DNA of 63,986 nucleotides, counting the filler, from Basidiobolus ranarum (taxonomy: Eukaryota): assembly GCA_040143965.1 (NCBI GenBank). It is 7 parts of 7 records of this genome, joined end to end, with 100 filler letters (N's around TTAATTAATTAA, not from the genome) between each part and the next. Parts side by side here need not be neighbours in the genome. Positions count along the whole stretch, not along the records: positions 18,515 to 27,660 come from JASJQH010007743.1; 6 more parts are not named here. One strand, given 5' to 3'. The position numbers were made by a program, and so were the translations under genes. The notes beneath the pieces are model-generated. The model saw nothing but the letters and a program-made list of their open reading frames with translations, was not told the origin of the DNA and did no database searches. The stretch's first letter is position 1; the number at the start of each line of letters is the position of its first letter. Of this stretch, positions 1 through 55,424 are shown in pieces.

Positions 1-166
1 AGCACAAGTTTGAAAAATCTATATATCTGAGAACTTCTAAGTTGGTAAAAATATTCTAAGTAAATTCCGATTGAGAATAATTGATAATATCTTAGTGAGT
101 TATAAGATAACAAAGTGCTAAGCTCTATATGACTATATAGGTGTTTAGGCAATGCTAATTTCAACA
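1..166 (-). mobile_element. Ty1/copia family LTR, partial (cut by window start)
   Basis: Colinear with the LTR at 19007-19353. Ends ...ggtgtttaggcaatgctaatttcaaca, i.e. a TGTTGAA terminus on the minus strand. Confidence 0.85.
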
Positions 167-245
167 AACTTTCTACTCAACAAATCAATAAGTTAAAACC
201 ATCAATTCTTCTAGTTCTCCAAATCACTCCCAAAATACTTCAAGA
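167..245 (+). mobile_element. 3' fragment of the same LTR family, opposite orientation
   Basis: aactttctactcaacaaatcaataag...caaaatacttcaaga matches the 3' part of the LTR at 36209-36538. Confidence 0.75.
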
Positions 246-1452: not shown

Positions 1453-4400
1453 ATGAAAGAGGAAACAAGCGCGACACAAAAACCAACTGGACTCTCAGTT
1501 CTATACGCGTCAAAGCTCAAATCTCCAGTTTACTCTAAAACAGCAACCAAAGAATTCATTCTTTCTCCAACTAGCAAATTAACTACACCTACAAAACGTT
1601 CCATCTATAACACTAATGCCATGTCTAATCTTACAAACTCGTACGTACCTTATATTGGCCTTTAAGTTACTACTTAAAATGACCACCATTTTTTTGGTTG
1701 AAATTCCTTCGCGTTCTAAATTGATTCCCTTTTTTTAAGATTACGAAAACCTCAATCTACCCCGGAGATACCACTTGAAAATTTCTCTCCTAGTCCGTTG
1801 AAAAGTTACCCCAGTTCTCCAATAACTTTTTCTTCGAAACGTCAACGTTCTTTTGTTATGGATTATGGTTCGTCACAAAAAATATCCTCTTATCCCCGAG
1901 GAAATAAAGGGTACCCATCTAGTCCCTCTGTGGGTACAAAGCAGCATCACATATCACAAACTCTATTAAAAACTCCACACTCTCATGAATTAAATCTACC
2001 TGCTTACATTTCTCCAGAAAAAAAGTCGCTTTTACAAGAAACTCCTCCTACTGCTACCAACAAAAATAAGCACTACCTACCTCTCGAGAAAAACACAAAT
2101 ACTGAGGATAGATCGTCCTCAACCCCTCCTCTAAAAAAATATCGAACAGGTACGATAAAGGAAGATTATATATATCTTTTATATATTTATAGCCATACTT
2201 CATACTTTGACAGTAGAATCTAAATTTTTTGATTTGTAACCATAGATAACATTCAGTCTAAAACAAACCTCCCTGAACAACAATCACAAAACCCTGCCGA
2301 AGTAAAAGTTAAAAGAGCAAATTCTGGCATTCTTTATACACCCCCGAAACCTATCTCCAGCGTATTAAACATCCACACTCAATCTCAAGATCCTCTAAGA
2401 AGTCAAAAAGGAAAGGAGCTTGAGCATCCAGCATCAAAAAATTCTTCAAGTCAACAATTTTCTATAGAAAACAAGAGTCCCTACACTGATGTACCTATCG
2501 AATCTGTCTCAATAAGAAATACCGGAAATGAGGAGGAGACCACCTCTTTCATCGAGGGTAAGTATCTATTATTCACAGGATTGAACGTTAAATCGAATGT
2601 GCATTGAATTTCCTTTGAAAGGGACTACTGGGAGTAACTTGGAGAGGACTGAAGAGCAATCGACTCCAACACTCAACTCTAAATTCTATGGAACCCCCTC
2701 TATTAGATCTACGAAAGAGAAAACAAGCTATTATGACAGTCCAAGAGTTCAAATGGACATTTCTCACGAGGATTCCGTCGATTCCCCCCGTTCATCCATC
2801 TCTACACAAGGAAGGATATCGCCTTTGTTAAAAAAGGCGGTTCACACTGATACGACACACGAGAGATCGTCCACTTCTGACCTTCTAGTTCATGAATCCA
2901 AGAAATCTATCGTAGTGAGTATATCAAATTACGAATTCCAAGAACTACCACTTGAAGAGAGCAATCCTATGGATGATATAGATAGCTTGCCCGAGTGTGG
3001 GATTGAAAATATATCGGAATCTCAAGTCGAGGCCTTGGCGAGCTGTGATCCACTCTTATCATCTGTCCACGTTACTCCAAATGACTCTAATATCACGTTG
3101 ACTCCATCTGAGATTGAGGACTCACAGGGCATTTCTACAGAGAGTGTTCAGATCGACAAGTTATCTCAGGAAGTAGAGTCAGACCTTAATACACCTTCCT
3201 TACCAAAACCACTTGAACTTGACCCTAAGGTACCAATAGAGCAGATATCTAGTACAGAAATATCACAGGATATCTCTGAAGCAGGAGTTGAAGAACAATG
3301 CGAATCCCAAATTCATCTCAGTTTCGACCATACACAAAAGCGATTATTCAATTCAATTTCAACATTAGGGGAGACTTTCTTTCAAGCTACGTATATGTTG
3401 GATAAGCTATTTCCTTTATCTTGCAGTCGAGCTTTTATTTCCCCTCATGGTACTAGTAGATTGTATACCCCTCGTAAATCCACTTTTAACCTAGCGGGTT
3501 TAGAGAAGGCTCTATGGGAAGGAGAGTACCCAACTTTGAGAAAATTTCAAAGTGACTTAACCAAGATGGCCTCAATAGTTCGAAAATCGTATGACGATAC
3601 GGATGTGATTTTCTTTGTCGCCAGAGATTTTTTACGAGCATTGGGTGAGATAATGGATGAAATCTACACACAGGATGTTATCAGTGAATTTCAAATGAAT
3701 TTTCAACAGTATTGGGAGACTCTGACTATTGATGAAATCCAAAATATCTATGCTGTTAAGATTCTTAATCAACAAGAAGCAGAAAGGAGTCATATGGAAT
3801 TACTAGCTAAAGAGATCACAGAATCCATACACTATCCCATATTGGACTTGCTCAATCATCCGTTTAAACCCTCAGTAGTCCGTCTGTTTGTCTCTCAGAA
3901 TCGAACTACCCTTGAAACATGTAGAGATGATCCCAACGGTGTGTTGCTCATTTTGTCAAATATTCAATATGACAAGGTTCCCGACAGTAAGAAAACAATT
4001 GTTCTAAAAGCAGATTGCTTTGTCTGTAAACCCATTGGAGAGAGACACGATATTGATGAAGTAGAAGTGTTACAAAATTTAGATTCTACTAAGACTTGGA
4101 TCAAAGTTTTAGTATTCAAAATAGTCAAACTTGATTTGGAAGTGCCAATCTCACTCCGCTCACAGCTAAGCAAGCCATTCAAGCCTTTTCTGTGTAAAAC
4201 TGACCATCTAAGAGAACATCTGAACGCGGAGTGGTCGCATATGACGCCAAAAAAACTCGATAAACTCGACTTACAATCGATACATGCAATGAATGAGAAC
4301 CATGCTGAAATAGCAACCAGCGTCATCGCCCCCTTAGAAGAACATGTCGAAATAGCAACCAGTGCCATTGCTCCCTTAGAAGAACTTGTCGAAACAGCAA

Positions 4401-6385
4401 CCAGCGGCATTACTCCCTCGGAAGAACATGTTGAGGATCATTCGACCGTACCAGTGCAACCATTGGAAGAACCATTAGATGACGAATTGTTAGTTTTGGA
4501 GGATACCTCGATAAACTTTCAACATACCGCGTTGACTGTTGTTAATTCGTTTACAGCTTCAACTCCAACTTCCCCTGTAACTAAACAAGAAGTGGACAGT
4601 CCCGTGATCCGATTTGATGAAGTTGAGGTAAATGATGAAACAATCAATGAAGATAGTGTCGCATTTAAACTCTCGAGATCGAATACACCCATTTTATTCC
4701 CGAACAGAGATTTAACACGTGAGGATTTGCAAGAGGCTTTAGTGTTGGATCCAGCCTCACACTTCACTGGTGAAAGCTCTAAACCAACTAAAAAGCATAC
4801 AACCTGGAGTGAAAAAATTCAATCAACAAGTCTAGCATCACAACCACAAAGCCATCCATCGTTAAACTCCGGTGAAAGCATAGAAAGTCCTGGTAAAGAT
4901 AAAGGGGTCATTCCCATAGCATCAGCCAAGTTTAGTAGAGAATTAGACGAACAAATAGAAGACTTCGACGAGAGACCTGTTAGAGGTAAATGTTGGGAAT
5001 AACGTGTCCAATAGAATACAAAAAGAGCTACTAATACTTGTCCACTTTGTTCAATCAGGTATTAGTGTCACTCGACCCAAATCTATTGCAGATTTATATC
5101 AACATTTCAAAATATGTAATTCAACGGCTTTACCTTTTGCTGCCTTCGAAGATTATCACCAACTAACTTGCCAATTTCATGATTGATAGTTGCTTACAAT
5201 CTTGGTGTGAAAGTGGAAAAATTGGATGATAATTACAAAACAGCCTTGTCTTCCGATGCGGTCGATGGATTCTTCAAATCAGTACATGGACACCTTCATA
5301 ATCCAAACGTGGTGATTCAGCTCTACAAAGAGATAAATGAATCCACATTTCAAGGACGTTTGATGGAGGTTCTATGTCTCGTGTAAGTTATGTTTATTTC
5401 CTGGCATCAACCACAAATTAGTCTAAACCAAAATCCAGCAAACTTAAAGGCACCAAACGAATCGGTGAGATCATGTCTATACTAGAGAATGAGACCAATC
5501 AACTCGCCGGATTGACCATGCTTAGGTATGGATAACAACACTATGCTTGATTGCCTTCTTAGCTAACTATTATGCATAGATGCCAGAAAACTTTGAAAGA
5601 CTACCTCCACGCTAGGCACAAGATTACATCCCAGCAGAAATACAAGATCATCAGAGACATGATCGTCGCAGTGAAAGTAATGCACGAGAATGGAATTGTC
5701 CATCGTGATCTTTCGGAGATCAATGTTATGGTAAACGAAAAGGCGGGCTCGTTGCTGAAAGACAACAGCCTTAGGCCTAAGGCGGTTATCATTGACTTTG
5801 GAAGAGCTTTATTTGTCAAGGCAGAAGATGTTTCGAAATGGAGCGTACGCAAATATGGCTTTGAAGAGTTGAAACTATTACCAAAAATCCACACCTCACC
5901 GGACCATGGTTACAAAAGATACAGGTAAGTCTACTGGTCTTCAGGCTCTCCAAATTGCATACTAAACTAATGCCTATATAAGATCCATTTGCACATTGCC
6001 AAAACATAAACAGGACCACGACATACTCCCTTACCCTGTTGACCCACTTGCTGAGGATATTTACTCCCTAGGCATCTTGATCTGGCGAACCTTGTCCCAA
6101 CAAAATCCTTGGCCAGGGGTATTTGACGATGATATTCGCGGGTTGAGAGAAATAGTTGGGAGCGAGGACAAGATGCGTAAAGAAATATGCAAGTCGATCA
6201 AGGGCACTAAATGCAGAGAGCTACTCTATGGCTGTCTTGCAGTCAATCCTCAAGAACGTTGGACATCGAAATTGTTGTTTGATTGGATTTGGAATACACA
6301 TAATCGACGTAGATTGATTCGAGAGTTCGAGGCGCATTTCCAAGGACGTAATGCATCCAGAAAACCCTCCAACGTGGAAGAATGA
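1453..6385 (+). CDS. Large multi-exon protein: Ser/Pro-rich N-terminus, degenerate bromodomain-like region, C-terminal atypical protein kinase domain
   Basis: Frame-preserving GT-AG introns at 1641-1739, 2150-2245, 2558-2621, 4986-5058, 5116-5189, 5383-5438, 5526-5579 and 5925-5982. Kinase motifs HRDLSEINVMV, IIDFG, EDIYSLGILIW and NPQERWT. Confidence 0.8.
4301..4434 (+). repeat. In-frame 42-bp tandem repeat (3 units plus a partial unit)
   Basis: Encodes HAEIATSVIAPLEE / HVEIATSAIAPLEE / LVETATSGITPSEE / HVE. Confidence 0.85.
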
Positions 6386-9165: not shown

Positions 9166-9265
9166 NNNNNNNNNNNNNNNNNNNNNNNNNNNNNNNNNNN
9201 NNNNNNNNNTTAATTAATTAANNNNNNNNNNNNNNNNNNNNNNNNNNNNNNNNNNNNNNNNNNNN
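9166..9265. other. Artificial contig linker
   Basis: 100 nt: N-run + TTAATTAATTAA (stops in all six frames) + N-run. Confidence 0.98.
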
Positions 9266-18414: not shown

Positions 18415-18514
18415 NNNNNNNNNNNNNNNNNNNNNNNNNNNNNNNNNNNNNNNNNNNNTTAATTAATTAANNNNNNNNNNNNNNNNNNNNNNNNNNNNNN
18501 NNNNNNNNNNNNNN
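18415..18514. other. Artificial contig linker
   Basis: N-run + TTAATTAATTAA + N-run. Confidence 0.98.
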
Positions 18515-18576
18515 GGATTTGAACCTGGGACCTCCTTCACTCTAGCAAGGTGCTCTGACCACTGAGCTACCAGTCC
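18515..18576 (-). ncRNA. tRNA-derived sequence (pseudo-tRNA, SINE-like head or Pol III cassette), 3' end lost in the gap
   Basis: GGACTGG TA GCTC-AGTGGTCA-GAGC A CCTTG-CTAGAGT-GAAGG AGGTC CCAGG-TTCAAAT-CC. A and B boxes and D arm are intact. The anticodon stem has a G.G mismatch, and AGA sits with a short variable loop. Confidence 0.75.
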
Positions 18577-18753
18577 TTGTATGCTATGCCTATATTGCTA
18601 GGGAACCTTAACCTAGTCTGTCAATATATGTTACTTTGGCATTTCAGCTTTATAAGCAACTGATTGGCCTTAGACTTTGTGTTCAGATGCAGTCACCATA
18701 CTCCATACTTTCCTCTTTGGGAATTACTGCTTGTACCACAAGTCACCAGACTT

Positions 18754-19006
18754 TCAACAGGCACCTCCCAACATTTCACAAATGAAAAATGTTGATTTGT
18801 GGATTATGAAGAAATCCCAATTAGAGAGTTTTGCATTGTTTTCTTCTCCTACAACAGTGACCCAAAGTCCTTTTTCTTGCAGCAGCATTTTCATTTTAAT
18901 TTTCCAAATTTGATAATTGGTTCCATCCAACTTTTCAGAAGAGGGAAAAGTTTCATATATGTGAAAAGTAGATATTACAGAGAGTGCAAGCTTGGGGCTC
19001 ATAACC
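18754..19006 (-). mobile_element. Internal region of a deleted Ty1/copia element: PBS plus gag N-terminus
   Basis: PBS GGTTATGAGCCC immediately follows the LTR. The ORF contains EKLDGTNYQIWKIKMKMLLQEKGLW, typical of a copia gag N-terminus. Confidence 0.88.
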
Positions 19007-19353
19007 TGTTAAAGTATTTGGGAGCCTATTGGAAGTGAGGTGGAGAACTAGAGAAATTGGTGATTTTCATGTATTGGTTTATTGAGTAGAAAATGACATT
19101 TGTACATTTATCAAGATGTAAATAAGCAAACATATGGAAAGTGTTGAGGAGGGTCCCAGAAGCATGTGTGCAATGTTTCAGGATGATAGTGCAAGTCTGA
19201 AAAATCTGTATATCTGAGAACTTCCAAGTTGGTAAAAATATTCTCAGTAAATTCCAATTGAGAATAATGAGTAATATCTTAGTGAAATATAAGATAACCA
19301 AATACTTGGCTATATATGACCATATAGGTGTTTAGACAATGCTAACTTCAACA
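19007..19353 (-). mobile_element. 5' LTR (347 bp) of the Ty1/copia element
   Basis: TGTTG...AACA termini, adjacent PBS, and multiple homologous copies in the window. Confidence 0.9.
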
Positions 19354-21727: not shown

Positions 21728-24159
21728 CACAGAGTATATAGAGGAGAGACTGGCACAGTGGTAGACTTGGGTATGGCTGCTAAAGTCGCAAGAAGATGAA
21801 AAGGAATCACAGACGTGGTGCGCAGGGATCGATGATGGTGGACCTATGTTTATATTGCTTTGAAAACCTCCGTATTATGGATTGTGAGTCAGGAACTCCA
21901 AAATTAGACCTGTTGCATCGGGCCAGGGGTTCACAAACCCTGGCTCGGAATGCTAAACTTGATAGACCGAAGTACAGGATAGTGGAATTCGAGTCATTAC
22001 TAATATAGAATATTCAGTACCAAATGTCACTACAGAATAGAATAAGTCCATTTCTCTCGCTTAAACACACATACATCTGCTATTGGTTCCTTCATTAACC
22101 TTTTCCGACTTTTGCCTCGTGCAACAAACAAAATTCAGGCATCGATTTGGAAACCATGTCCCACAACCCCATGGCAACTTACCAAGGCAAATATACCTTC
22201 ACGTGCCTGTCCAATACTCCATAGGATCCAAATAACGGGTTGTCACCTACGAAGTTTTCCATCTGGCTACTAGCACTTGAAACAGGCTCAATATTGTCTC
22301 TAAACACACTTGACTTTTTTCAATACTAGTACGGAGCCTACCATACCCATGGCCCTTCAATCGAACCAATATATCTTCCAAAAGTGGGAGAGATTCCACT
22401 GGTTTTTTGAGTGTTAAAATTGGGTGATCAACCGGGCCACATCTATGTAAGATGAGCTAAGCTTTTGAGGAAATGTAACAACGCGAACTAGAGTGCTTGA
22501 ACCAACAAAGCAACCCCTTTAAATTAAGAAAAGCTTGTGTGATTCAGGAAATAATAATTACTTCTTCCTTAATCTAAAGAAATTGAACAATGGTTCAGTA
22601 TAATTCCAAACTTTGGCTTCACTAGATTCAGTAGAGATAACTTTGGTCAATAACGTACTCCCAGGAAAATCGGCAACCCAGAGACTCCCAAGTATTGTAC
22701 CATCTTCAATCTTTATTGGGAATCCTTCAATTAACGCTATGATAAGAATTCCGTATGGAACCTGTGTACCATGTGTCCAAAATATGATTACAAATGAGGT
22801 TCCAGAGGTCAAGGAATCGAACGAAACAAGCTGTATTTGGAACCAGATGAGTCCGGCACCAAACCAACTATTAAATGAATTGTTGTATTAGAAATCTTGA
22901 AATATTGTTGTTAAATATGGTTTTGTAGATTCCTATAGTATTATATCATCCGAAGATCAATCAAATATAGTGCTGGATTCTATTCTGGAATTGGAAGTAA
23001 GAATTCTGCTTAGTCATTGAAATCAATGAATTCATCGAATCGAGATTCGATCCCTATTGTATGATAATCGTACAAAAATTTGCTCACCTACTAAGAATTG
23101 AATGCAGTACTGTTGGTTGAAACGCACATTTTAGTAGTATATATGTTTCAATATGAAAGATTTGAATAATATTTGAACTTCTTTCATAGCTTGTAGTTTG
23201 GTTCTTACTTTTTATACTAAAGAGTCATTTTGTTGTTTTAATCTAAATGCTATATCTTATGGCAAAGATAAGTCTGAGAAAACGAAAACACTGACTGCTG
23301 TTATTATTATAGTAGATGGTACTTGAAGGTTATATTAGATAAGACCCACTGTTCTGATTTGGAACAAACATTACATAGGACATGTCATAGAAGATTGAAG
23401 TTGATAGAAGGCAGCTTTCGAATGATTACAGGCATTGCCATAAGTGTGACGATGTCTATCAATAAACTAAAGTATACCAACACATATCGCTGTTGCAAAC
23501 ATTAGCCACAAAAGTGGTTTCAGTCGAGTGACCTGTCCTATCAAGTGAGATGTCCACACAAAAGCATCAGTCTCCGTCTTCAATATCGATTTCATTCTGC
23601 CTGTTGTGCAAACAGATTGCTTTATTTTGACTAAACATGTCACTTTGCTTGTATGTTGGGACAAGTAGAGATTATCATACACCTATTCAAGTAATAGTCT
23701 CCGATGGCCAAGTCATTGAAAATGAGTAAGCAGTGTTGGTTTCGTATGAGTATGGAAAGTAAACTACGTGGAAACAATGATGCCGCCCTGATTTGAAATG
23801 GTTTTGTTGTCAATCTTCAGCAAAGAATACTCCATAGTGTGCTTTCGTATTTTGGTGCTAGTTTCAACTTACTACACTAAGGCAAAACGTAGTACTATAG
23901 TATCCAGCAAATTATAAATTAGCTGAATTAAAACTCTTAAGGCTTACAACTGCGGTTTTCTACTAGTTGAAATATCACTCTATTTTCGCAACTAGCGGAA
24001 GATGTCTTTAATCAAGACAAGATCAAAGAAGAAACCATGAGACAGAGAATGGTGACGTTTCTTAAGAGCTCCCAGCCAACGATTCTCATGCACAATCATA
24101 TATAAAGATATGATAGATATAGTATGTCCTATCAGTCTTATTATTCCTGTTAACCATCA

Positions 24160-25113
24160 ATGAACTGTAAAGACCTGGTAAAACTTAATGTTGGTGGAAA
24201 GGTCTTCCACACAACCAGATCGTCGCTTGCCAGTTCGAGTTTCTTCATTAATCTCCTTTCTGGCGACCTCATTGAAGGTTCTACCAGTAGGGAATCAACA
24301 GACACATTATCATCAGTAGGCGACATAATAACAACACGAGAACTGGATGAGAGCTCCGAATCTCAAGTGAAAGAAGATCAAATTCCTGTTTCTTACCATC
24401 CATGTTGTGATAGTGAAGTGATATTCATCGATAGGTCACCAAAGTTATTCTCTATTCTCCTAGAGTATCTTCGAACTGGGATATTAAATCTGCCACCATC
24501 GGTTAGCAAAGCCCGAATATGTGACGAAGCTATCTACTACGGAATAACGGGGGAAGAGCATCCTGTATTCGATGTATCACTAGAAAGACAACGTACAATT
24601 GAAACTACGTATCTATTCAAGGAAACATTCAGACAGAGCATCGGTACTGATCGGCCATTAATTCTCAACGCCTCTGCTGCTACGAAAACAATCAATTTGC
24701 TGTCCATCAAAGTCCTGAGCACTGCAATAAACAAGACGATGAAATTCCCCTCTGTGCTTATATACTTAGAGAGCCAACCCATTGTGTCTTCAAATGGAAT
24801 ATTTAATGAGATTTCCTATTACGCAGTGAATGATTGGGGAAACCGAACCATACTTCTAGATATTTTGGTGCTTAATTTCACCAAAAATAATTATTACACT
24901 CTGAATCTGATTCTCGATTCTGGTACTATCTATCGAGTCTCCCTGCGACGTAATCTCTGCTCATCCTGTCAGCGTTGTTCTAGATGTGAATCTCAATATG
25001 ACTTTCCCGTGAAGAATTGCCGAACATGCGAACAATTGTTCGTTCCGTTAGTAGAGATTGAATATAGTGTCCAGATGTCAATGCCAAAACTATGTGAAAT
25101 TCACCCAGAATAG
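24160..25113 (+). CDS. BTB/POZ (KCTD/T1-type) protein, intronless, with a C-terminal Cys cluster
   Basis: VKLNVGGKVFHTTRSSL, IFIDRSPKLFSILLEYLRTG, EAIYYGI. Confidence 0.88.
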   Translation: MNCKDLVKLNVGGKVFHTTRSSLASSSFFINLLSGDLIEGSTSRESTDTLSSVGDIITTRELDESSESQVKEDQIPVSYHPCCDSEVIFIDRSPKLFSILLEYLRTGILNLPPSVSKARICDEAIYYGITGEEHPVFDVSLERQRTIETTYLFKETFRQSIGTDRPLILNASAATKTINLLSIKVLSTAINKTMKFPSVLIYLESQPIVSSNGIFNEISYYAVNDWGNRTILLDILVLNFTKNNYYTLNLILDSGTIYRVSLRRNLCSSCQRCSRCESQYDFPVKNCRTCEQLFVPLVEIEYSVQMSMPKLCEIHPE

Positions 25114-25659: not shown

Positions 25660-26138
25660 ATTGTTTGGGGCCTCTAGAATAAGTTCGAAAAATCTTCCAA
25701 GTGAACTTCTCTTGAGAAAGGTAGATGATCTCTTAGTGAAATATATGCCAACTAAATACTAAGCTGTGTATGACTATATAGGTGTTTAGGGAATGCTAAT
25801 TTCAACAATATACAGCTTAATATTTAGTTATTTCATATTTCACTAAGATATCACCCATTATTCTCAATCGGAATTTACTCAGAAGTTCTTAGATATGTAG
25901 ATTTTTCAAGCTTGTGCTAGAAGCCCCACACTTTGCACATATGCTCTCAGCACATTCTACACTTTTGTTCATCTATGTCTTGACAAAACTTTACATGTCA
26001 GCTTTCTGCTCAATAAACCAATAAGTGAAAACCAACAGTTTCTCAAGTTCTCCAAACCACTTCCAACAGGCTGCCAAAATACTTCAACATATATGACTAT
26101 ATAGATGTTTAGGTGCTTAGACATTGTTAAATTCAACA
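25660..26138. mobile_element. Nested cluster of three copia LTR pieces (-, +, -)
   Basis: Pieces at ~25660-25807 (-), 25808-26089 (+) and 26090-26138 (-), each ending in ttcaaca and homologous to 19007-19353. Confidence 0.82.
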
Positions 26139-26274
26139 AAAATATGTTTACAGATAAAGTTCTAAAGGTTAAGGAGGTGAACAAAATGATTTGAATCTGT
26201 AAGGAGATGAATCAAGCAACTTAATTTCATAACCAGTATCAAACTATTAATGATGCTAGCCATAGGCTTTCATG

Positions 26275-26595
26275 TGTTGAAATGAGCATTTCCTAAACAC
26301 CTATATAGTCATATATAACTTAGTATTTAGTTATCATATATTGAACGAAGATATCACCCATTATTCTCATCAGGAATTTACTTATAAGTTCTCAGATATA
26401 TAGATTTTCAAACTTGTGCTAGAAGCCCCCAACTTTGCACATATGTTCCTGGAACCTTCCTCAACACATTCTATATGTCAGTTTGTTTACATCTTGACAA
26501 AACTATAAATGTCAACTCAACAAATCAATAAGTGAAAACCACCTGTTTCTCTGAATCAAAAACCGCTTCCAACAGGCTCCCAAAATACTTCAACT
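26275..26595 (+). mobile_element. Solo LTR with 5-bp target-site duplication
   Basis: TGTTGAAA...CTTCAACT, flanked by TCATG at 26270-26274 and 26596-26600. Confidence 0.9.
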
Positions 26596-27350
26596 TCATG
26601 AATGCACTGTATATACTTCCTCCATCAGATTTTGGTTCAAAATAACAGCCTAGAGCTGAATGAATCTGATCATGCCAGATAGCGCTGAATTAAGCTACCC
26701 AAAGTTTCAAAATACTTGGTGCAATGGGAAATATACAGCACTATATGGCTCAATAAAATGGAGCAAGTGATATGTAAAGACACTGCTATATAACTTCTTT
26801 ACTAGATATACATAATCAAAGCATATTCTAGGTGAGTTTACATTATAATGAACTTGTCTTGGATGGTTATTTCCTGAGGTTAGGTAATAAGCACTTAGCA
26901 GTCACCAGTGAAGTGTGACCACTTCTTTCATGAGAGTTAAATATAGTTTTAAGATTATCACACATCTTGCAACAATCTCTTGTGACAAAGCTTATGGGAA
27001 CAATGATGACGATCTGACCTGATCTGATAACACAAAATGCAACGAAAGTTATGTTTCTCAAAACGCTCTCACAAATTTCATGCATATTGGCTCGAAATTC
27101 TTGAGCCAAGCGTAAGTACCAAAATATCCAGATATCCAGTAGACTACTTACACCTGACCATTCTCGTTGAATGAAATATTATCCCATTTTAATAAAAATT
27201 GGAAGATGCGATACATTATTTGACAATGTATTTGAGAAGCAACTACAAAGTTAAGAATGATGACGTTTCTCGAGCGTCTATAAGTCTCACAAACAATTTT
27301 ATACCGGAAGTATCGTGTTCTGTTCATTTTCTTATTCCTGTTAATTATCA

Positions 27351-27660
27351 ATGAACTGTAAAGACCTGGTAAAACTCAATGTTGGTGGAAAGGTTTTCCA
27401 CACAACCAGATCGTCCCTTGCCGGCTCAAGCTTCTTCACTAATCTTCTTTCTGGTGACTTCATGGAAGGTTCTGCCAGTAGGGAATCAACAGACATATCA
27501 TCAGTAGATGATATCAAAATGACCTGTGAGCTGGATGAGAACTCGGAGTCTCAAGTAAAAGAAGAAGAAGATCAAATTGCCGTTTCTTTCCATCCATGTT
27601 GTGATAGTGAAGTGATATTCATCGATAGGTCACCAAAGTTATTCTCTATTCTCCTAGAGT
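27351..27660 (+). CDS. BTB/POZ protein, tandem paralog of 24160-25113, 3'-truncated by contig end
   Basis: Near-identical N-terminus MNCKDLVKLNVGGKVFHTTRSSLA...IFIDRSPKLFSILLE. Confidence 0.88.
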
Positions 27661-27760
27661 NNNNNNNNNNNNNNNNNNNNNNNNNNNNNNNNNNNNNNNN
27701 NNNNTTAATTAATTAANNNNNNNNNNNNNNNNNNNNNNNNNNNNNNNNNNNNNNNNNNNN
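27661..27760. other. Artificial contig linker
   Basis: N-run + TTAATTAATTAA + N-run. Confidence 0.98.
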
Positions 27761-35636: not shown

Positions 35637-35966
35637 TGTTGAAATTAACATAGCCCAAACATCTATATAGTCATATATAGCTTAGTATTTAGTTAGTCCA
35701 TATTTCACCAAGATATCTTCCACTTTTCTCAAGAGGAATCTACTTAGAAGTTCTTAGATATTTAGATTTTTCAGACTTGTCCTAGAATCCCCAAACATTG
35801 CACACATGTTCCTGGGACCTTCCTTAACACATTTTACGCATTTATTTGTTTACCTCTAGACAAAACTATAAATGTCAACTTTCGACTCAATCAATCATTA
35901 AGTGAAAACCACGAATTCTTATAGTGCTCCAAACCACTTGCAACATACTCCCAAAATACTTCAACA
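35637..35966 (+). mobile_element. Copia family solo LTR
   Basis: TGTTGAAATT...CTTCAACA, full-length homology to the other copies. No TSD visible. Confidence 0.9.
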
Positions 35967-36145
35967 GTCAGGAAGGTCCCAGGAACATGTTTACAAGGTG
36001 TGGGGTCTTTTGGATAGATTTGAGAAAATCACATAATCTGAGAACTTCCAAGTAAATTACAAGTGAAAATATTGAATAACAACAGGGAAGTTAAGGTAGC
36101 TTGCTATATGAGTATATAGATGCTTAAGCTATATCATTTTCAACA
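35967..36145 (-). mobile_element. Older partial LTR of the same family, opposite orientation
   Basis: ggaaggtcccaggaacatg...tctgagaacttccaagtaaatt...ttttcaaca. Confidence 0.75.
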
Positions 36146-36208
36146 GATGATAGCTTTAGATGAACTTAAGTATCTCATAGGTTTACAGATCCACATGGAT
36201 ACACAAAG

Positions 36209-36538
36209 TGCTGAAATTAGCATTGCCTAAACACCTATATAGTCATATATAGCTTAGTACTTAGTTATCCTATATTGAACTGAGATATCACCCATTATTT
36301 GATATTGGAATTTACTTATAAGTTCTCAGATATATAGCTTTTGATAACTTGTGCTAGAAGCCCCAATCTGTGCACACATGTTCCTGAAAGGTTCCTTAAC
36401 ATACTCTACATGTTAGTTTGTTTACATCTTGACAAAACTATAAATGTCAACTTTCTACTCAATAAATCAATAAGTGAAAACCACCAATTTCTTTAGTTCT
36501 CCAAACCACTTGCAACAGGCTCCCACAATACTTTAACA
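36209..36538 (+). mobile_element. Copia family solo LTR with near-perfect TSD
   Basis: TGCTGAAATTAGC...CTTTAACA, flanked by CAAAG and CTAAG. Confidence 0.9.
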
Positions 36539-36895: not shown

Positions 36896-36995
36896 NNNNN
36901 NNNNNNNNNNNNNNNNNNNNNNNNNNNNNNNNNNNNNNNTTAATTAATTAANNNNNNNNNNNNNNNNNNNNNNNNNNNNNNNNNNNNNNNNNNNN
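36896..36995. other. Artificial contig linker
   Basis: N-run + TTAATTAATTAA + N-run. Confidence 0.98.
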
Positions 36996-46117: not shown

Positions 46118-46217
46118 NNNNNNNNNNNNNNNNNNNNNNNNNNNNNNNNNNNNNNNNNNNNTTAATTAATTAANNNNNNNNNNNNNNNNNNNNNNNNNNN
46201 NNNNNNNNNNNNNNNNN
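46118..46217. other. Artificial contig linker
   Basis: N-run + TTAATTAATTAA + N-run. Confidence 0.98.
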
Positions 46218-55214: not shown

Positions 55215-55324
55215 TTAGGGTTAGGGTTAGGGTTAGGGTTAGGGTTAGGGTTAGGGTTAGGGTTAGGGTTAGGGTTAGGGTTAGGGTTAGGGTTAGGGTT
55301 AGGGTTAGGGTTAGGGTTAGGGTT
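55215..55324 (+). repeat. Telomeric repeat (TTAGGG)n at contig end
   Basis: 18 perfect TTAGGG units plus TT, running into the linker with the G-rich strand pointing toward the end. Confidence 0.95.
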
Positions 55325-55424
55325 NNNNNNNNNNNNNNNNNNNNNNNNNNNNNNNNNNNNNNNNNNNNTTAATTAATTAANNNNNNNNNNNNNNNNNNNN
55401 NNNNNNNNNNNNNNNNNNNNNNNN
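55325..55424. other. Artificial contig linker
   Basis: N-run + TTAATTAATTAA + N-run. Confidence 0.98.

Follow-up and report, generated by a model that had tools for sequence, protein, structure and literature searches.

A tRNA-derived sequence beside a miniature copia derivative in Basidiobolus ranarum: a possible Helenus-type LTR at a contig end

Does a small copia-type element of Basidiobolus ranarum, which opens with an LTR of one family and closes against a segment that starts like an LTR but contains a tRNA-like sequence, belong to a kind of fungal retrotransposon that carries its own RNA polymerase III (Pol III) promoter? The sequence-only reading had proposed such an LTR/TRIM family with a tRNA-derived Pol III promoter. 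Such a proposal makes good sense, yet it is not new: tRNA-bearing fungal LTR elements are already described under the name Helenus (PMC10886601), and the locus is at best a further element of the Helenus kind in a new fungal lineage.

The window, i.e., the whole stretch of 63,986 bases that was analysed, consists of seven contigs of nearly equal length (~9.1 kb; 8.6-9.2 kb) with a G+C content of ~37%. The contigs are joined by artificial linkers (Table 1), so contigs that adjoin in the window do not do so in the genome. Pfam matches reveal ordinary fungal genes (Kre9/KNH, Pex22, GATA, ERCC4, TatD, CIA30, SBDS), and the ORF of ribosomal protein L12 has 98%, 96%, and 94% identity to proteins of Basidiobolus ranarum and B. 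meristosporus. The longest ORF of the window (2585-4999, plus strand, 805 codons uninterrupted) has no Pfam match. The third contig spans 18515-27660, and the locus occupies its left end, read on the minus strand; the contig edge at position 18515 adjoins an N44-TTAATTAATTAA-N44 linker and is situated inside the tRNA-like sequence, as had been claimed from the sequence. The same contig carries two plus-strand ORFs with BTB_2 (potassium-channel-tetramerisation-type BTB) domains at 24154-25110 and 27345-27659, the latter cut by the contig end. The sixth contig terminates at 55215-55324 in ~18 perfect TTAGGG repeats (~108 nt) with unique sequence before them; TTAGGG is the canonical telomere repeat and the run represents a chromosome end. 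K-mer arithmetic on the contig stops was considered and abandoned: one contig stops 62 nt into the tRNA-like part and another at the 108-nt telomere run, no single k-mer length fits both, and no inference is drawn from the point where the contig stops.

Table 1. Coordinates of the features of the locus, of related LTR copies, and of the linkers in the window.
Feature	Position	Strand	Sequence or remark
5' LTR of the mini-element, family LTR_C, 347 nt	19353..19007	(-)	TGTTGAAGTTAGC...TACTTTAACA
Termini of the 5' LTR	19353..19007	(-)	TGTTGAAG...TTTAACA
Primer-binding site (PBS), 12 nt	19006..18995	(-)	GGTTATGAGCCC, directly after the terminal CA of the LTR
ORF, 82 codons + stop	19002..18754	(-)	ATG at 19002; final codon and stop within TGTTGA
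Purine tract, end of the 247-nt internal portion	18769..18760	(-)	GGGAGGTGCC, contains GGGAGG
LTR-type start	18759..18751	(-)	TGTTGAAAG, directly after the purine tract
Spacer, U3-like part of a heterologous LTR or plain flank	18750..18577	(-)	No other copy in the window (BLAST)
tRNA-derived sequence, tRNA positions 1-62	18576..18515	(-)	A box TAGCTCAGTGG, B box GGTTCAAATCC; cut by the contig end
LTR_C copies/fragments	35637-35967, 36206-36538, 26275-26594, 25808-26089, 170-233		
LTR_C inverted copies/fragments	25681-25807, 1-166		
Six identical 100-nt linkers	9166-9265, 18415-18514, 27661-27760, 36896-36995, 46118-46217, 55325-55424		N44-TTAATTAATTAA-N44

The mini-element at the left end of the third contig is a non-autonomous, internally deleted, dead copia derivative on the minus strand. 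It is composed of an LTR, a PBS of the tRNA-iMet anticodon-loop type, ~57 gag codons, a purine tract, and the opening 8-9 nt of an LTR. The order that had been read from the sequence (LTR, PBS, 82-codon ORF, GGGAGG, and an LTR-type start at 18759, all on the minus strand) was recovered with each part at the coordinates then given. The features of the Copia superfamily are all present, namely TG...CA LTRs with inverted termini, a 5-bp duplication (at a solo LTR of the same family), a PBS, a copia-type gag, and a purine tract. The PBS sequence GGTTATGAGCCC occurs once in the window. The ORF matches Pfam DUF4219 (E 3.5e-9) and over 69 aa is 58% identical to the N-terminal part of P0122, a protein of 570 aa with copia gag, protease (Pol beta-barrel), pre-integrase, and integrase domains; the likeness is gone after residue ~57-61. 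Since the likeness stops at ~57-61 residues, the 247-nt internal portion corresponds to the 5' ~190 nt plus the 3' ~55 nt of a copia interior. The first ~57 codons of the ORF are a copia gag N-terminus, and the remaining codons lie beyond the deletion junction. Protease, integrase, and reverse transcriptase are lost from the mini-element, with ~57 gag codons left, and according to Pfam neither reverse transcriptase nor integrase is encoded anywhere in the window. BLAST finds no second copy of the internal portion in the 64-kb window. When the 81-aa gag ORF was used as a query, no candidate copy of similar length was found; the protein search across libraries returned 22 distant matches, the best with 62% identity and none near-identical. 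On its sense strand the internal portion contains three runs of four or more T (TTTT at 18967..18964, TTTT at 18949..18946, and TTTTT at 18789..18785), and such runs are potential Pol III terminators.

The 5' LTR, with AATGA as its 5' flank, belongs to a family designated LTR_C (~330 nt, TGTTGAAATTAGC...ACTTCAACA) that is present at 4 loci of the 64-kb window, with 7 further copies or fragments having 71-88% identity to the 5' LTR (BLAST, aligned). Compared with the leave-one-out LTR_C consensus, the 5' LTR has 86% identity (~14% diverged). The solo LTR at 26275-26594 is flanked by TTCATG/TCATG, and consequently LTR_C makes target-site duplications of the copia type, 5 bp long. The copies form nested clusters at 25681-26594 and 35637-36538, also at 1-233, none of which is accompanied by an internal region. 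Some fragments are arranged head-to-head (25681-25807 inverted relative to 25808-26089, and 1-166 inverted relative to 170-233), and inverted LTR_C pieces occupy 35968-36205 between two direct copies. The tRNA-like part is absent from the 5' LTR and from the 7 other LTR_C copies or fragments, as assessed in the window by box-pattern search and alignment.

What follows the purine tract starts like an LTR. Of TGTTGAAAG, 7 nt are common to the element's own 5' LTR and 8 nt to the LTR_C consensus, with divergence thereafter. The motif TGTTGAAA has only 14 occurrences in the window on both strands, and 6 of them are at LTR_C starts or fragments. We conclude that the LTR start is real, given that it is placed exactly after the purine tract, that the stop of the gag frame falls inside it, and that TGTTGAAA is rare in the window. 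The sequence-only reading had seen no resemblance of the segment to the 5' LTR beyond TGTTGAA, and the alignments agree: in direct orientation, 18759..18577 exhibits no likeness to 5 LTR_C copies (local alignment, z -0.8 to 1.75 relative to shuffles), whereas a control comparison of LTR with LTR scores 323 with a shuffle mean of 32. In inverted orientation the z values are 0.5-2.5, which is not significant after ten comparisons; the two best inverted matches have z 2.4-2.5 over ~70 nt in 2 of the 5 copies, and 13-18 of 500 shuffles reach them. The weak likeness concerned (18590-18661, plus strand) runs against the orientation of the mini-element and amounts to ~65% identity, with gaps, to positions ~166-234 in two of the LTR_C copies. 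Were this likeness real, the spacer that lies upstream of the tRNA-like part would come from an old LTR and would not be a piece of a new one. No second copy of 18515-18759 is found by BLAST in the 64-kb window, the spacer 18577..18750 is free of runs of four or more T, and a 79-aa plus-strand ORF across the junction has no candidate relative in the protein search.

The tRNA-like sequence begins 183 nt beyond the LTR-type start (nt 184 of the segment), on the same strand as the element, and reads GGACTGG TA GCTC AGTGGTCA GAGC A CCTTG CTAGAGT GAAGG AGGTC CCAGG TTCAAAT CC. The earlier description of intact A box, D arm, and B box on this strand stood up well. The combined A-box and B-box pattern has one match in the window with 0 mismatches, still one when 2 are allowed, and 0/100 shuffles contain it. 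Aligned to 18576..18515, the Rfam model RF00005 reaches 37.7 bits, above its gathering score of 29, with E 4.8e-7; the alignment spans positions 1-60 of the 71 in the model, is 3'-truncated, and includes a single non-standard pair, in the anticodon stem. The same model run with the Ns included and without truncation handling gives 22.6 bits, below the threshold; ARAGORN finds 0 tRNA genes in the window, and an Rfam scan of the window at the gathering threshold finds 0 matches. The ARAGORN result and the 22.6-bit score arise because the 3' end of the tRNA-like sequence is missing. Considering ARAGORN, Rfam, and the box pattern together, this is the only tRNA-like sequence in the 64 kb. The fold of the 62 nt alone (z 0.37) is unremarkable, as expected without the 3' half of the acceptor.

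Among the stem pairs that can be seen, 10/11 are intact (D-stem 4/4, anticodon-stem 4/5 with G31.G39 as the exception, visible T-stem 2/2), and the visible invariant bases are all kept (U8, A14, G18, G19, A21, U33, G53, T54, T55, C56, A58, C61). A TATA-like AATATAGG is located ~15-20 nt upstream. The anticodon is AGA and the variable region has 5 nt. Serine tRNAs have a long variable arm, so that a sequence combining the AGA anticodon with only 5 nt in the variable region cannot be one of them. The anticodon arm had been called decayed, and both the G31.G39 pair and the AGA without a long variable arm say the same. To judge from these motifs, the tRNA-like sequence seems to retain promoter features and to have lost decoding features.

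Searches of other collections yielded no relative. The 22-mer of the anticodon arm has 0 occurrences in metagenome contigs and 0 in viral contigs. When the D and T arms were fixed and the anticodon arm was left free, the pattern was found at 5 metagenome loci, of which 4/5 are tRNA-Met(CAT) by ARAGORN, in DNA of 57-70% G+C and with encoded CCA, while the fifth is tRNA-Asn(GTT) by ARAGORN, in a tRNA cluster at 37% G+C. From these calls it follows that the D and T arms are generic tRNA consensus and that no relative of the locus is among the five. The contig with the tRNA-Asn gene (2055 nt, L001; 37% G+C) holds six tRNA genes within 2 kb (Phe, Asn, Leu, Trp, Arg, His) and is unrelated to the locus; it was found solely via the D and T arms of tRNA-Asn, which are common to the query.

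The known elements closest to what we observe are the Helenus elements, which are TRIMs that carry a tRNA-derived sequence within the LTRs and that, together with Cassandra and Ajax, are classed as TRIMp3 (Kojima 2024, Biology 13:119, PMC10886601). The following account is limited to the parts of that paper and its DataS1 that were used here. Fungal hosts are reported only from Pucciniales and a few Agaricomycetes, from a screen that was seeded with Repbase and widened only to relatives of positive genomes. [quoted passage not shown] Their LTRs measure 100-320 nt and hold the tRNA-like part in the 3' half, in same-strand orientation, with a T-run after it. Copia elements are thought to move fungal Helenus, and in one pair of families a copia interior reduced to its 5' 198 bp and its 3' 12 bp makes up the entire Helenus interior, the LTRs being unlike. 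The tRNAscan calls on Helenus heads, which include Thr-AGT and Ser-AGA, often conflict with the isotype model, and tRNA predictions in rusts are inflated by transposon heads (all PMC10886601). We found no report in the literature of Helenus-type elements in Basidiobolus or other early-diverging fungi.

In several respects the locus resembles this description, again as far as the portions of PMC10886601 consulted go. It has a TGTTGAA LTR-type start directly after the purine tract, a tRNA-like part with A and B boxes on the element's strand and well inside what would be the LTR, a short interior built from the 5' and 3' ends of a copia interior, and an anticodon mismatched to its body. The PBS 12-mer GGTTATGAGCCC is identical to that which opens many fungal Helenus interiors in DataS1, and GGGAGGTGCC resembles the ...AAGGAGGTG ends of some Helenus interiors there, as compared by eye. 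Also by eye, the tRNA-like head has in common with some rust heads the GACTGG acceptor half, the D arm, and an identical T arm, a likeness that may reflect no more than common tRNA ancestry. In other respects it differs. Helenus has two like LTRs, whereas here the 5' LTR and the 3' segment 18759..18515 share only TGTTGAA, and the tRNA-like part is found only in the 3' segment, the 5' LTR being from a tRNA-free family; consequently the copy is at best a chimera. The interior here has its three runs of four or more T, in contrast to 0/24 Helenus interiors (DataS1 part 1, by eye; PMC10886601), where an interior free of such runs is a criterion that we drew up from DataS1 part 1 with read-through by Pol III in mind. 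The host, finally, is Basidiobolus, a zygomycete, as opposed to Pucciniales and a few Agaricomycetes (PMC10886601). Of the Pol III promoter proposal, then, the kind of element exists (Helenus/TRIMp3) and the 3' half fits it in the parts of PMC10886601 at hand, but the idea is not new and the locus is not an intact member, having unlike LTRs and a tRNA-free 5' LTR.

Other known systems share single traits with the locus. Cassandra, as described in the same part of PMC10886601, likewise has an internal promoter that goes back to a small-RNA gene within the LTR of a miniature element, but its module derives from 5S rRNA, is present in both LTRs, and occurs in plant hosts, and its transcription by Pol III has been shown experimentally. 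The lineage of Ty5 and Drosophila copia shares with the locus a PBS complementary to the anticodon stem-loop of initiator tRNA-Met (PMC10886601, in the portion used), a gag N-terminus of the DUF4219 type, TG...CA LTRs, and the 5-bp duplication (seen here at the LTR_C solo LTR 26275-26594), and differs in that the copy here is without protease, integrase, and reverse transcriptase.

Our preferred reading, which we hold tentatively and at somewhat less than even confidence, is that the segment is a heterologous Helenus-type LTR joined to the copia derivative by recombination or misassembly. In this case a second LTR, heterologous and of the Helenus (TRIMp3) type, would truly begin with TGTTGAAAG at 18759 and would have nothing in common with the copia LTR except the terminus that integrase recognises. 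The 3' half of the second LTR would carry the tRNA-derived module, through whose predicted A and B boxes RNA polymerase III could be recruited, with the decoding features decayed. Reverse transcription always yields two identical LTRs, and because of this a copy with two unlike LTRs is not a fresh insertion. It would rather be a dead chimera that formed by way of ~190 nt of internal homology between a Helenus-type parasite and its copia partner, either through recombination between nested or ectopic copies or, alternatively, through a short-read assembler threading through the ~190-nt common stretch. The contig would then stop in the most conserved, and hence most repeated, part of the LTR. 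Template switching by reverse transcriptase was considered as a source of the unlike LTRs and rejected, since one replication cycle makes both LTRs identical.

The case for a Helenus-type LTR is in part architectural, five features matching the known family as described in the available part of PMC10886601, and in part probabilistic. A random truncation that spares only 8-9 of ~330 LTR bases would be a ~3% event, and the sole tRNA-like sequence in 64 kb would fall by chance within 250 nt of the element and on its strand in only ~0.2-0.4% of cases, by our estimate. Against a Helenus-type LTR stands the lack of what defines the family, a pair of like LTRs that both bear the tRNA-like part; in addition, the internal portion contains three runs of four or more T. 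The 64-kb window has no second copy of 18515-18759 or of the interior, whereas LTR_C is present at 4 loci. The 5' LTR is ~14% diverged and the tRNA-like part has at most one structural defect, so the tRNA-like part looks younger than the element, or constrained, which also speaks against this reading. Fungal reports are, moreover, limited to Pucciniales and a few Agaricomycetes in the portion of PMC10886601 used.

The alternatives that had been offered from the start, a SINE head or a pseudo-tRNA in the flank, are nearly as likely, and we regard them as a serious competitor that itself falls short of even probability. Here the 3' LTR would have been lost after its first 8-9 nt by deletion or insertion, the spacer would be ordinary flank, the tRNA-like sequence would be a SINE head or tRNA pseudogene unrelated to the element, and its repetition would be why the contig breaks there. 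Truncation is a very frequent fate of LTR elements, and this one already has one internal deletion. That 18515-18759 is without another copy in the window and without likeness to LTR_C also fits, as does a tRNA-like part more intact than the ~14%-diverged LTR, which is expected of a younger, separate element. Fungi are known to contain tRNA-derived SINEs such as the AfuSINE2 families (PMC5063351). Elements of this class (SINE2, e.g., AfuSINE2 of Aspergillus fumigatus) have a tRNA-like head in which the A and B boxes are intact and the anticodon arm is decayed, similar to what is seen here; they start at the 5' end of the tRNA-like part and are LINE-moved, whereas at this locus only 62 nt of a head are visible and any body, tail, and duplications would be beyond the contig end. 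The reading requires two coincidences, a break within the first 8-9 of ~330 LTR bases and the window's only tRNA-like sequence less than 250 nt away on the same strand. A SINE inserted into the LTR would, in addition, put its head at the junction and not 183 nt off.

It is improbable that the junction is an assembly artefact that joined two unrelated loci and made the neighbourhood meaningless. The assembly is indeed fragmented (seven ~9.1-kb contigs), the contig ends 245 nt past the junction, and its last 840 nt are repeat-derived; but the common TGTTGAAA is far too short to mislead an assembler, no overlaps were found between contig ends, and a false join would need a long common stretch, i.e., the internal portion, which already implies a second element family with that interior and this LTR.

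Ty1 and Ty3 in yeast integrate upstream of Pol III (tRNA) genes, and at this locus too an LTR element is situated less than 200 nt upstream of a tRNA-type sequence. Nevertheless, a working or recently inactivated tRNA gene targeted in this manner is a very improbable reading, and the suggestion that a pseudo-tRNA had attracted the insertion fails with it: the sequence passes the Rfam tRNA threshold despite truncation, has all visible invariant bases and 10/11 visible stem pairs intact, and is preceded by AATATAGG, but AGA together with a variable region of 5 nt excludes a serine tRNA, G31.G39 is a further defect, targeting would leave the 3' LTR whole, which it is not, and the other LTR_C loci (25681-26594, 35637-36538, and 1-233) are without a tRNA gene nearby by ARAGORN, Rfam, and box pattern.

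The meaning of the locus depends on which of these readings holds. Should it be a flank with a pseudo-tRNA or SINE head, it amounts to a decayed transposon remnant of the ordinary sort, located at a contig break. A Helenus-type LTR would widen the known range of Pol III-promoted fungal LTR elements, so far rusts and a few mushrooms, to include an early-diverging lineage; there would be support for repeated, independent births of such elements, and annotators would be warned that tRNA predictions in such genomes may be inflated by transposon heads. A still more specific proposal, which we consider rather unlikely, is that Basidiobolus (Zoopagomycota) has its own TRIMp3/Helenus-type lineage, which would have no precedent outside Dikarya and would probably have arisen independently, with a head based on a short-arm AGA body, and that the locus is a recombinant of this lineage with the copia family that mobilises it. 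If this recombinant reading is true, a Pol III-promoted TRIM would be physically linked to its autonomous partner via the common PBS and gag 5' region, and a copia/TRIM chimera of this sort would be a rare direct pointer to the autonomous element that serves the parasite.
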